Positions 49,428 to 53,408 of a stretch of 64,000 nucleotides of DNA are shown piece after piece. The notes below the pieces were generated by a model. The model saw only the letters and a program-made list of their open reading frames with translations, was not told the DNA's origin and ran no database searches. A program made the translations under genes and the position numbers. The DNA comes from an uncultured delta proteobacterium. GTDB lineage: Bacteria; Myxococcota_A; Polyangia; Polyangiales; Polyangiaceae. The stretch is taken from contig CAWIUL010000011.1 in NCBI GenBank assembly GCA_963839305.1, positions 2,441,561 through 2,505,560 on the forward strand, written 5' to 3'. Within the stretch, counting starts at the first letter, position 1, and each line of letters begins with the position of its first letter.

Positions 49428-52400
49428 ATGAGCGCGGCGTTCGGTCGTTATCGTTTGCTCGAGCGACTCGGTCAAGGCGGCATGGCCGAAGTCTTCAAGG
49501 CGAAGAGCTTCGGCGTCGAGGGCTTCGAGAAGGTCCTCGTCATCAAGCGCATCTTGCCCGAGCTCGCGCGCAGCCAGCAGTTCGTGGACATGTTCATCCA
49601 CGAGGCGAAGCTCGCGGTGCGCCTGTCGCACGCGAACATCGTCCAGGTGTTCGACCTCGGCATCGCGCCCGATAACGGACGACAAGGGCGCGAAGCTCCC
49701 CGACGCCTACTTCATGGCGATGGAGTTCGTGCACGGGCTCGACCTCGCGACGCTCCTCGCGAAGTGCCGTCGTCAGCAGAAGGCGATCCCGATCGAGCTC
49801 GCGGTCTTCGTCTGCGCCGAGGTGGCGAAGGGTCTCGATCACGCGCATCGCCGGCGCGACGAGCAGCTCAAGCCGCTCGGCATCGTGCACTGCGACGTGT
49901 CGCCGCAGAACGTCTTGCTCTCGTACGAGGGCGAGGTGAAGGTCACCGACTTCGGCATCGCGAAGGCGCGCGGGGTGCTCGAGCAGAACCTCGAGGACAC
50001 GCGCACGCGGCAGCTCCACGGAAAATTCGGGTACATGTCGCCCGAGCAGGCGCGCGGCGAGCCGGTCGACGCGCGGAGCGACATCTTCTCGCTCGGCGTC
50101 GTGCTCTACGAGTTGCTCGCGGGCGTGAACCCGTTCAGCGCGCCGACGACGTTCGAGACGCTGCGTCGCGTTCAAGCGTGCGAGTTTCCGCCGGTGGAGC
50201 TCCTCCGACCGGACGTGCCCGGCGAGCTCGTGAAGGTGCTCAAGACCGCGCTCGCGAAGGACGCGAAGGATCGCTACGCGGACGCCGGGCGATTCTACGA
50301 GGCGCTCCTCGCGTTCTTGTACTCGACAGGCGGACGCTACACGGCGAACGACCTCAGCGAGTTTCTCTCGCGGTTCGCGCAGCGCGACGAGAACGCGCCC
50401 GCGTCGTCCGCGCCGTCGCTCGGCGATCCGTCGCTCGAGAGCGAGGCGGCGCACCAGCAGGAGCGCACGCCCGTCGAGGTGCCTCCTTCGCGCACGCTCT
50501 CGAGCAGCGGCATCGCGCGCGTCGACACGGGCGTGCGCTTCGTCGACATCGATCGCGCGGCGGGCCTCGGCGAGCGGCGCGAGGTGACGGCGCTCTACCT
50601 CGAGCTCCCGCGCGGCGTCGACAAGCGGCGTCTGCGACAACGCGGCGCAGATCATCGAGCGGTACGGCGGGTTCGTCGTGCGTCGCGAGCGCGACGAGCT
50701 CGCGGCGATCTTCGGGCTCGGCGATCCGGACGGACGCGACACGGAGGTCGCGACGCGATGCGCGCTCGTGACGATGCGCGCGCTCGATCGGACCGGCCGC
50801 GAGCACGAGCGGCGGCATCCACACCGGGCGCATCCACGTGACCGCGGGCGGCGCGCCCACGGAGGACGAGCGACTCAGCGGGCTCATCTCGTCGGCGTGC
50901 GAGCTCGCGCGCGTGCGTGAAGGGCGCCTCGCGATCTCCGGCGCGGCGATGCGCCAGGTGAAGGGGCTCTTCATCTTCGAGCCGCTCACGACCGACTCGT
51001 CGAAGACGCCGGCGCCGGTGCTCGCGGGGTCGCTCGTGAAGGACGTGCGCGGTCCGAACGAGACGCTCGGCAGGTTCGTCGGACGCAAGGACGAGCTCCG
51101 CAAGATCGGCGAGGTGCTCGCGTCGGCGACGCGGCGCCAAGCGCGCGTGCTCACGATCCGCGGCGGCCACGGCGTCGGAAAGACGCGGCTGCTCGTCGAG
51201 GTGGAGCGCCGGCTCGCGAAGGGCAACTACAACGTCGGCTTCTACATCGCGACGTGTCCACCGCGCGGCCGCGAGTATCCGCTCAGCGGGATCGTGTGCA
51301 TGTTGCAAGTACTCTGCGGCGTCGCCGATGGCGACCCCGAGGCGCGCATCGCGTCCGTGCAGCCGCGCCTTCGCGCGCTCGGCCTGCACGACGAAGAGGT
51401 CGGCGCGGTGCTCACCGCGCTCGGCGCGAACGTGCCGACTTACTCGGGCGCCAACGCGAAGAGCTCCCTCCGCTCCGCGTTCGCGCGCATGGTCGTGAGC
51501 CTCTGCGAGGACAAGCCGCACACCTTCGCGTGGGACAACGCGCACAACATGGACGAGGACAGCTTCTCGATCCTCGGGGCGGCGTTCGATCGGCTCTCGC
51601 ACGCGCGCGTCGTCTTCGCCTTCACGGCGCGCGAGGGCTTCGCGCACCCGCTGGAGAAGGGCTCGTCGCACGTGTCGATCGATCTGAGCGACCTGAAGTC
51701 GACGGAGGACGTGAGCCGGCTCGTGTCGCTGCGCCTCGGCACCGAGAGCGCGCCCGACGAGCTCGTCCGGTTCGTGCGCGAGCGCGCGGGCGGTCACCCG
51801 CTCTTCATCGAGGAGATCATCAAGGGGCTGCTCGACGCGAACGCCGTGAGCGTCGCCGAGGGTCGCGTCGTCTCGATGAAGCTCCTCGGGCAGGAGCTCG
51901 CGCTTCCGAAGACGCTGCGTGGGCTCGTCGCGTCGCGCGTGTCGCGCCTCGACGCGACCGCGAAGACCACGCTGCAAGCGGCGGCGGTGCTCGGCGATCC
52001 GATCGACTCAGCCGTGCTCGCGCGCATGCTCAACCAGCCGCTCGCGGCGCTCGAGCGCCTGCTCGCGTCGCTGAAATCGAGCGATTTCCTCGCGCACACG
52101 AGCGCGTCGGAGCTCCACTTCACGTCGCCGATCATGCGTGAGGTCGTCGTCGACGCGCTCCCGCAGGACGCGGCGCGCGACATGCACTCGGCGGCGGGCC
52201 TCGCGCTCGAGCAAGAGCTGGGCGAGCGCTCGTGGGAGCAGGCGGCGCGCATCGCGACGCACTTCTACGAAGCGGGCGACCGCGAGCGCGCGGCGACCTA
52301 TTTCGCCAAGAGCGGCGAGCGCCGCCTCGAGGCGCGACAGCTCGAGGCTGCCGTGCGCGACTACGCGCGCGCGATCGAGCTCTGCGACATGACGCAAAGG

Positions 52401-53408
52401 CCGCCGAGCGAGCTCGCGCTGTGGCTCGACGCGCTCGCGGCGGGCGTTCGCATGGTGCGCTCCGCGCCCGAGGCCGAGGAGACGTGCGTGCGCGTCATCG
52501 CGCAGATCGACAAGGAGAACGACCCCGCGCTTCGCGTGCGAACGCGCGTCGCGGCTTCGCGCATCTTGGTCGCGTGTCACAAGTTCGAAGCGGCGACGCC
52601 GCACCTGAGCGAAGCGGAGCGCATCGCGGGCGGTCGCGACGAGCTCATGAAGATCGTGCTCGTCGCGTGGGCGGAGCTCGCGGGGCGTCGCGGCGACTTC
52701 AATCGCTCGCTCGAGCTGCTCGTGCGCATGCAGAAGCTCGCGACGGTCGAGGGCGACAAACAAGAGGAGCACAAGATCCTCACGAACCTCTCGCAGGCGC
52801 ACGCCGCCCTCGGCGATCGCGCCGCCGCGAAGCAAGCGCTCGATCGCGCCGAGCAGCTCTTGCCCGAGGACACCGCCGCCGCGTGCGAGCGCCAGAAGCT
52901 CCGCGGGTTGATGCACTATTTTCTGCGCGATTTTCGCCTCGCGGCCGTGGAGATCGAGAAGGCCGTCGACATGGCGCGCGCGCTCGGCCTCACGTACGAG
53001 GTCGCGGTCAACCTACACAACCTCGGCGACGTGCTCATCAGGCTCGACGACTACGCGCGCGCGTACGGCGCGCTCCAGCAGTCGCTCGCGCTCTGCGACG
53101 AGTACGCCTTCGAGCGCCTCTCGACGCACAACCGCATGCTCCTCGCGTACCTCGCGGGCCACAAAGGCGATCCCGAGGGCGACAAGCACCTCGATCAGGG
53201 CATCGCGTACGCCGAGGCCAACGAGTTCTGGTGGGACGTCATCAACGGCCGCCTCTTGCGCGCGCGACTCCTTCAGCGCCGCGGCAAGCACGAGGAGGCG
53301 AAGCATGCCTTCCACGCGCTTCGCGCGCTCGCGAAGACCAACGGCCACCGCATGGTCGTGGACGACTGCGACGCGGCCCTCGCGGATTACGCGAACGCGA
53401 AGAACTGA
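49428..53408 (+). CDS. multidomain signalling protein: Ser/Thr kinase + class-III-cyclase-like domain + AAA/NB-ARC-like ATPase + TPR (three frame breaks: ~49670, ~50640, ~50815)
   Basis: Kinase [25 protein letters not shown]. Cyclase-like [22 protein letters not shown]...[14 protein letters not shown]-loop [12 protein letters not shown]-terminal TPR region. Assembled from four listed ORFs. Confidence 0.7.

Follow-up and report, generated by a model that had tools for sequence, protein, structure and literature searches.

A frame-broken gene in a Polyangiaceae assembly is probably the ortholog of a STAND-regulated Ser/Thr kinase with a degenerate cyclase-homology domain

The stretch of DNA analysed here comprises 64,000 nucleotides from an uncultured delta proteobacterium of the Polyangiaceae (assembly GCA_963839305.1, contig CAWIUL010000011.1). 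This whole stretch is called the window, and all coordinates are based on it. Between an ATG start codon at 49428 and a stop codon at 53406-53408 of the forward strand lies a gene that we consider, with a probability of about three in four, to be the ortholog of a signalling protein made as a single polypeptide of about 1325 amino acids. Its parts follow one another in the order Ser/Thr kinase, linker, dead cyclase domain, STAND NTPase (the AAA_16 region within a nucleotide-binding oligomerisation module, NOD) and TPR superhelix. An earlier inspection that used only the letters of the window and their translations, the sequence-only reading, had proposed a single protein of about 1330 amino acids after three frame corrections. 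It described an N-terminal Hanks kinase, a class III cyclase-homology domain that is probably degenerate, a STAND-type P-loop NTPase and C-terminal TPRs. Each of these elements was recovered by the methods described below, and the corrected protein has 1325 amino acids. The proposal that these domains are fused in one polypeptide stands in part. Such a fusion is the rule among relatives, but the DNA as written does not encode it and frame correction has to be assumed.

No single open reading frame (ORF) covers positions 49428-53408, as seen both in the list of ORFs and in a three-frame translation, wherein the coding signal runs from frame 0 to frame 1, then to frame 2 and back to frame 0. The same four coding pieces are recovered by tblastn with an intact ortholog, at 83-91% identity. 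Two orthologous loci, L001 and L003, were used for DNA alignment, and their nucleotide identity to the window gene is 85% and 78%, respectively. Relative to both loci there are exactly three window-specific +1 insertions, located at ~49671, ~50620-50626 and ~50786, and all remaining indels are multiples of three. Owing to these three insertions, the start and stop codons in the window are not joined by one continuous reading frame. Removal of one base per site yields a coding sequence (CDS) of 1325 codons with no internal stops, and the corrected protein shares 90% identity with intact orthologs from metagenomes. The frame correction made in the sequence-only reading is probably right.

The first CDS segment (49428..49670, +, frame 0) encodes amino acids 1-81 and includes the start of the kinase with its G-loop GQGGMAEV and the catalytic lysine (VLVIK). 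It ends at the first extra base, at 49671, whose placement is uncertain by a few bases. The second segment (49672..50619, +, frame 1) encodes amino acids 82-397, which form the remainder of the kinase and the linker and reach into the cyclase-like domain as far as its first strand, and it matches the database protein P0002, an intact ortholog from L001, at 89% identity by tblastn. The second extra base is assigned to 50620, with a placement that is uncertain within ~50620-50626. The third segment (50621..50785, +, frame 2) encodes amino acids 398-452, the core of the cyclase-like domain, and is followed by the third extra base at 50786. Three-frame translation and tblastn both support a fourth segment (50787..53408, +, frame 0) that encodes amino acids 453-1325 and the stop codon.

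The Hanks-type Ser/Thr kinase domain spans 49449..50277 (+, amino acids 8-283). In the stitched protein it is matched by the Pfam Pkinase profile (PF00069) over the same residues with an E-value of 3.9e-36 and a score of 125.2 bits, compared with a gathering threshold of 31.7. The catalytic residue set is complete. K40, E59, D156, N161, D174-F-G and S/A-P-E are all present, and they are invariant among the 67 relatives on which all residue counts given here are based. The HCD, DFG and SPE motifs lie at 49882-49911, 49942-49962 and 50032-50049. The arginine of the canonical HRD motif is a cysteine in the window (HCD), and the clade of the window is thus a non-RD variant. This position is occupied by R in 51 of the relatives, L in 10, C in 5 and S in 1, and so the RD or non-RD status differs among orthologs. 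There is also a second, shorter Ser/Thr kinase in the window, encoded by a 402-amino-acid ORF on the other strand (23754-24962, -; Pkinase E-value 1.6e-46). It shares 35% identity with the kinase domain of the 1325-amino-acid protein and begins right after the stop codon of a frameshifted gene for a GH31 glycosidase.

The domain that follows the kinase and linker (50569..50993, +, amino acids 381-521) was assigned by profile comparison, hhalign, AlphaFold2 (AF2) modelling and Foldseek. Such profile and fold methods were needed because Pfam failed on this middle domain. There are no Pfam matches to PF00211 even at E-values up to 10 in the 37 family members tested, nor in the stitched protein or the listed homologs. 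A domain search of the corrected translation had been suggested as a check, and it returned Pkinase, AAA_16 and weak TPR matches but not the expected Guanylate_cyc. Four other lines of evidence nevertheless support a class III cyclase-homology domain. A profile built from the 37 members matches the guanylyl cyclase Cya2 in the PDB (2w01) in the expected register, with an E-value of 1.4e-3. When compared with 5.8 billion proteins, the same profile finds carriers of PF00211 at E-values of 5e-8 to 3e-4, and one of these carriers also has AAA_16. Alignment of profiles with PF00211 proteins by hhalign gives probabilities of 96-97%. Finally, the AF2 model of the middle domain of the database protein P0001 (predicted local distance difference test, pLDDT, 89.3; predicted template-modelling score, pTM, 0.84) was used to search the PDB with Foldseek, and its best 50 matches are all catalytic domains of class III adenylyl or guanylyl cyclases. 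The E-values of the cyclase-like domain in this search are 3e-10 to 2e-7, with template-modelling (TM) scores of 0.6-0.67 and sequence identities of 10-19%.

The sequence-only reading had called for inspection of the catalytic residues, namely the metal-binding Asp pair and the transition-state Asn and Arg, and these positions prove not to be conserved. By alignment with true cyclases, the window carries E392, D421, S487, E491 and R417 at the catalytic positions. The first metal site, an Asp in true cyclases, is Glu in 40 of the 67 relatives and is mostly hydrophobic or Ser in the rest. The Asp of the second metal site is retained in only 7/67 relatives and in the window, and is otherwise mostly replaced by Gly, Glu or Ser. 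Where true cyclases have the transition-state Asn, the family has Ala, Asp or Ser, and the transition-state Arg is substituted by Asp, Glu or Ala. The specificity position is likewise variable, and the GFT motif that is present in true cyclases is lost. Because the catalytic positions are not conserved, the middle domain is predicted to be a pseudo-cyclase, that is, a cyclase-homology domain whose catalytic function has been lost family-wide. The domain retains nearly invariant motifs of its own, including a GxHxGRIHV strand.

The STAND nucleotide-binding oligomerisation module occupies 51075..52163 (+, amino acids 549-~911). Pfam AAA_16 (PF13191) matches amino acids 549-729 with an E-value of 2e-12 and 48.4 bits, compared with a gathering score of 32.6. 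The Walker A motif GGHGVGKT lies at 51162-51194 and the Walker B motif FAWD at 51519-51563. The GxxGxGK[TS] pattern, the Walker A lysine (K584) and the Walker B aspartate are invariant among the relatives. An all-helical, TPR-like sensor follows at 52164..53405 (+, amino acids ~912-1325), where Pfam TPR gives only weak matches (amino acids 1116-1310). The C-terminal part of the protein is intact in the window, and an AF2 model of amino acids 541-1325 was obtained with a pLDDT of 86. It consists of an alpha/beta NTPase, then helical and winged-helix parts, and then ~20 paired helices for which pLDDT is mostly >88.

With this model, the best PDB match by Foldseek is PH0952 (6mfv), at an E-value of 2.1e-14 over 791 columns. 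Avs3, Apaf-1, the NOD of MalT (8bob, E-value 1e-7), CED-4 and many TPR proteins follow, and the TPR region matches the structures of LGN, Rap and APC/C TPR proteins. Global TM-scores are low for these matches (0.2-0.3), as is expected when domain orientations differ. The arrangement that characterizes a STAND core, wherein a nucleotide-binding domain, a helical domain and a winged-helix domain precede a repeat sensor, is thus evident from both the AF2 model and the Foldseek matches. A fold search was needed to see this relationship because a search of the PDB by sequence, with the last 785 amino acids as the query, gave just weak matches to the TPRs of LGN.

There are 6966 significant homologs of the corrected protein. 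The best 120 all have 1269-1369 amino acids and share 61-90% identity over 94-100% of the query, under source names such as 'serine/threonine protein kinase/TPR repeat protein' and 'MAG Polyangiaceae/Labilithrix protein kinase', wherein MAG denotes a metagenome-assembled genome. In GTDB, where one genome was scanned for each species, 566 loci were confirmed, including those of Sorangium cellulosum So ce56 and other Sorangium (48% identity), Minicystis rosea, Labilithrix MAGs and a Nannocystis MAG. The So ce56 protein is encoded at ~1.46-5.36 kb of NC_010162.1 (complement). In Polyangia, members of full length number in the thousands. Thus, the search for the same fusion in relatives, which had been proposed as a check, finds it full length in the best homologs and spread over the GTDB loci. 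Conservation across Polyangia is 40-90% identity. The gene order Lgt ... TsaE, 767-amino-acid gene, kinase, 469-amino-acid gene, CtaA is common to the window and to the contigs of the database proteins P0001, P0002 and P0011. Identity, full-length alignment and gene order mark this as a core gene of Polyangia that is orthologous and has been inherited vertically.

The upstream neighbour in this arrangement is a protein of 767-813 amino acids (46833-49274, +, in the window) without any Pfam match. The 767-amino-acid gene is found beside the kinase gene in 47 of the 83 loci that were fetched, and because of this association a functional link between the two proteins is possible. In Sorangium, the ortholog is instead situated behind a DnaK-like gene, in the first 8.5 kb of the chromosome record.

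The frame breaks themselves are most likely artefactual. We consider the three +1 insertions to be probable indel errors of assembly, in which case the organism makes the intact protein. The ratio of nonsynonymous to synonymous substitution rates (dN/dS) relative to L001 is 0.17 for the CDS as a whole. The two out-of-frame segments have values of 0.19 and 0.27, and the part downstream of them has 0.16. Because the ratio stays low out of frame, there is no detectable period of neutral decay. Moreover, frame-breaking indels are found in at least six other genes of the window. Relative to the same relatives, window-specific examples are located at ~45883 (+5), ~54966 (+1), ~55191 (-1) and ~57180 (+1). 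The first of these is in a gene for a Pro-rich protein of 358 amino acids. The next two, ~225 bp apart, are in the 469-amino-acid lipoprotein gene, and the last is in a gene for a protein of 236 amino acids. In addition, the GH31 glycosidase gene on the other strand is split at ~26700, which parts its N-terminal from its TIM-barrel domains. The TsaE gene (46433-49324) has lost its stop codon and reads on for 2.4 kb, and a plot of third-position G+C content by frame suggests at least one further break at ~42.5 kb (~42400-42600). This amounts to roughly ten breaks per 64 kb. Given that ~16 kb of coding sequence could be set against orthologs, a 4-kb gene with three breaks has close to its expected share. 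Since other genes in the window are similarly broken and the out-of-frame segments do not show decay, assembly error is the likeliest explanation, and the window looks like an indel-prone assembly. With one frame-breaking indel per 5-6 kb or so in this assembly, apparent pseudogenes, split genes and 'corrected' fusions in this window need caution. Programmed frameshifting and phase variation were considered and rejected, as the sites are neither repeats nor homopolymers and the orthologs lack a shift.

Several observations weigh against the view that an intact, switchable protein is made. All three breaks fall in the same 1.1 kb of the gene, outside homopolymer runs, which is unlike the classic error signature of nanopore or 454 sequencing. 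No reads and no independent sequence from the same species were found, which leaves room for a recent pseudogene. Specifically, there were no matches in an exact look-up of a 105-amino-acid PF05635 protein, in a metagenome scan with a codon-degenerate pattern for 24 codons of the linker, or in a metagenome scan with the exact 32-mer between the second and third breaks. A short-query protein search with amino acids 300-497 gave only three fragmentary matches at 56-60% identity, and no locus of >83% identity was found in the GTDB genome scan. With regard to function, the second acidic residue of Walker B is an Asn here and is variable in the family, and ATP hydrolysis may therefore be slow or absent. 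The switching mechanism proposed below is drawn by analogy alone.

Perhaps, then, the insertions are real and the gene is a recently inactivated pseudogene, or only fragments are made, such as the product of an 856-amino-acid ORF (50838-53408) that would hold half of the cyclase domain together with the NTPase and the TPRs. The breaks do stand in the given sequence, they are clustered in a single gene and their sites are not homopolymeric. However, constraint is not relaxed in the out-of-frame segments, the corrected frame has no stop, the family is conserved class-wide with invariant catalytic residues, and the window has its many similar indels elsewhere. We therefore regard inactivation as unlikely, albeit a realistic alternative. 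That the middle domain is instead an active adenylyl or guanylyl cyclase, which would make the protein a bifunctional kinase/cyclase, draws on the class III fold and homology and on the window copy itself, which has Asp at the second metal position and Glu at the first. Yet the lack of PF00211 matches, the disappearance of GFT and the substitution of metal and transition-state positions in most relatives render it very improbable, and the residue counts in the 67 relatives led us to reject it.

The protein might otherwise be placed in a named family of similar build. NCBIfam TIGR03903, whose members are regulators of clusters for thiazole/oxazole-modified microcins (TOMMs), is a profile of 1267 positions that is matched end to end with an E-value of 3.4e-67. 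Amino acids 39-1034 of P0001 align to profile positions 8-976 and the 856-amino-acid ORF of the window to positions 422-1252, for a combined range of 8-1252. The likeness extends to a length of ~1300 amino acids and to the same order of kinase, cyclase-homology domain and large C-terminal region. However, the score of 227.3 bits is far under the curated equivalog cutoff of 705.75, and genes for a cyclodehydratase, YcaO or a precursor were not seen within 10 kb on three related contigs or among the ORFs of the window. True membership in TIGR03903 is thus highly improbable, and score and gene context mark the Polyangia group as its sister group. An anti-phage STAND (Avs-like) or kinase-based defence protein, located in a defence island, was entertained because Avs3 is the second Foldseek match and because the PADLOC kinase models PD-T4-6 and mad6 strongly match the kinase domain. 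These PADLOC matches are confined to the generic kinase region (amino acids 3-359), though, and no defence STAND model was matched. In many genomes the gene is also present just once, in synteny with TsaE, Lgt and CtaA, and its conservation across Polyangia is unlike that of patchy defence genes. On the basis of PADLOC coverage and synteny, the defence-island proposal was rejected, and its likelihood is close to negligible.

With the protein taken as an intact multidomain switch, there are several known systems with which it can be compared. In PknK of Mycobacterium tuberculosis, a Ser/Thr kinase is joined to a STAND NTPase of the MalT type (PMC4381067). The sequence-only reading had spoken of a PknK/MalT-like architecture, which is borne out insofar as a kinase, a STAND NTPase and TPRs are combined and MalT is among the Foldseek matches. 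The likeness to PknK, which is by description only, lies in an effector kinase that is placed on an ATP-driven oligomerisation switch. In PknK, no cyclase-homology domain is known to separate the kinase from the NTPase. Another point of reference is provided by the M. tuberculosis proteins Rv0386, Rv1358 and Rv2488c, whose architecture is cyclase-ATPase-TPR (bioRxiv 10.1101/2024.03.06.583649). These Rv0386-type proteins and the database protein P0125 resemble the window protein in their module of cyclase-homology domain, AAA_16 and TPR, including a linker that runs into GRFVGR ahead of the P-loop. P0125 carries both PF00211 and PF13191, and it matches the profile of the middle domain with an E-value of 1e-5 and an hhalign probability of 96%. 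In contrast, Rv0386-type proteins have competent cyclase residues, a C-terminal LuxR helix-turn-helix and no kinase, whereas the window protein has lost the cyclase residues, has an N-terminal kinase and has no DNA-binding domain. PH0952 and MalT share the STAND core with a TPR sensor, and PH0952 (6mfv) is the best structural match for amino acids 541-1325, although sequence identity is only 14-16% and global TM-scores are 0.22-0.26. The effector here would be the kinase with its pseudo-cyclase, where the MalT/PH0952-type comparison has a DNA-binding domain.

The observations made in this study concern domain identities, residue conservation, family distribution, synteny and the positions of the insertions. 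A switching mechanism and a role for the pseudo-cyclase can be proposed by analogy, and the model is taken from MalT/PH0952-type STAND proteins (PMC4381067; PMC6468293), for which double autoinhibition has been described (PMC6468293). At rest, the NTPase would be bound to ADP, with the TPR sensor and the arm keeping the NOD closed. Binding of a ligand or partner protein to the TPR region would then free the NOD, which would exchange ADP for ATP and multimerise, thereby gathering the N-terminal modules. The induced proximity would turn on the kinase and lead to the phosphorylation of targets. A non-RD kinase, such as that of the window, would lean more on induced proximity than on phosphorylation of the activation loop.

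Class III cyclase domains act as head-to-tail dimers. Because the pseudo-cyclase has this fold and sits between the kinase and the NOD, it would most likely bring two kinase domains into position, as a dimerising or regulatory (allosteric) adaptor, rather than make cAMP or cGMP. A bolder possibility, which we hold to be rather improbable, is that the dead cyclase domain is a conserved allosteric site, formed by its nearly invariant motifs including the GxHxGRIHV strand, that binds a nucleotide, a second messenger or the kinase and is coupled to the STAND switch. If true, the protein would be a core two-input kinase hub in Polyangia, whose inputs are a ligand of the TPRs and a ligand of the cyclase pocket. 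In a weaker variant of this idea, the breaks would be real and the lineage of the window would have just lost its two-input hub.

The region upstream of the gene had been described as a low-GC promoter region with a perfect palindrome at 49305..49317. The base composition is as described, in that the 150 bp ahead of the gene have 56% G+C, compared with ~69% elsewhere and ~70% for the window. The palindrome also exists, and it is located one base further to the right. This perfect 6+1+6 inverted repeat, CAATGTGACATTG, occupies 49306..49318 (no strand assigned). The window has a single copy and the 83 related loci have none, and there are 55 perfect 6+1+6 inverted repeats in the window. The closest relatives share only GTGACATT of the palindrome, which is followed by CGCTCGTTGCC, an element absent from the window. 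The palindrome is neither conserved nor statistically remarkable and is not evidence of an operator.

Immediately ahead of the palindrome, an extended -10-like promoter element (TGn + TACGTT), TGGTACGTT, is located at 49296..49304 (+), and it aligns with TGGTAGGTT or TGGTACGTT in relatives. The pattern TGGTAnnnT is present in 14 of 58 ortholog upstream regions, versus 0 of 58 coding controls of equal length, and TGGTACGTT may thus be a candidate promoter element. A simple scan of the upstream region for the sigma-70 consensus gave no promoter-like site. Further downstream, the leader motifs GGATTACTTCCGCTCG and CCGTGTCGCGGGGG (49336..49367, +) are conserved in the closest clade, as judged from an upstream alignment with the orthologous loci L001, L004 and L062. 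The same interval (49336-49367), some 60-90 nt before the start codon, includes the leader motifs GGAYTACTTCSGCTCG and CCGTGCGGGGG, which are kept in the closest relatives. An Rfam search of 48800-54600 at E-values up to 1 did not reveal a leader RNA or any other element.

Downstream of the gene, the sequence-only reading had pointed to a microsatellite-flanked four-helix-bundle cassette and then a vWA lipoprotein. The cassette (53416-54456) is as described. It holds two ORFs of PF05635 (the four-helix-bundle family of the 23S rRNA intervening sequence), one at 53523-53960 (+) and the other at 53950-54267 (-). On either side of them lies a hexanucleotide array, (CCGTCT)n at 53416-53515 and (CTCCGT)n at 54423-54456. 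Neither L001 nor L003 has the cassette, and the contig of P0001 has a single copy. The cassette is thus a variable insertion between the kinase gene and the lipoprotein gene. The description of the downstream ORF (54366-55898, +) is only partly upheld. Its N-terminus is lipobox-like (ALGVAAC) and a DGSG motif is present, but the vWA label was not reproduced, since the intact ortholog (L001:14025-15434) has no vWA or other Pfam match at E<0.01.

A literature search did not find functional work on this orthologous group or on TIGR03903. The gene is an unstudied but ordinary example of STAND-regulated Ser/Thr kinases that carry a cyclase-homology insert, and in most respects the result adds little beyond annotation. 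What is new is that a middle domain that is invisible to Pfam can be assigned as a pseudo-cyclase, and that there is a Polyangia-wide group distinct from TIGR03903. Because this family is a sister of TIGR03903 without TOMM linkage, automatic names are misleading. For the Polyangia group, 'TOMM kinase/cyclase' would be wrong and plain 'protein kinase' incomplete. The ligand and the substrates of these proteins would be of moderate interest for signalling in myxobacteria.

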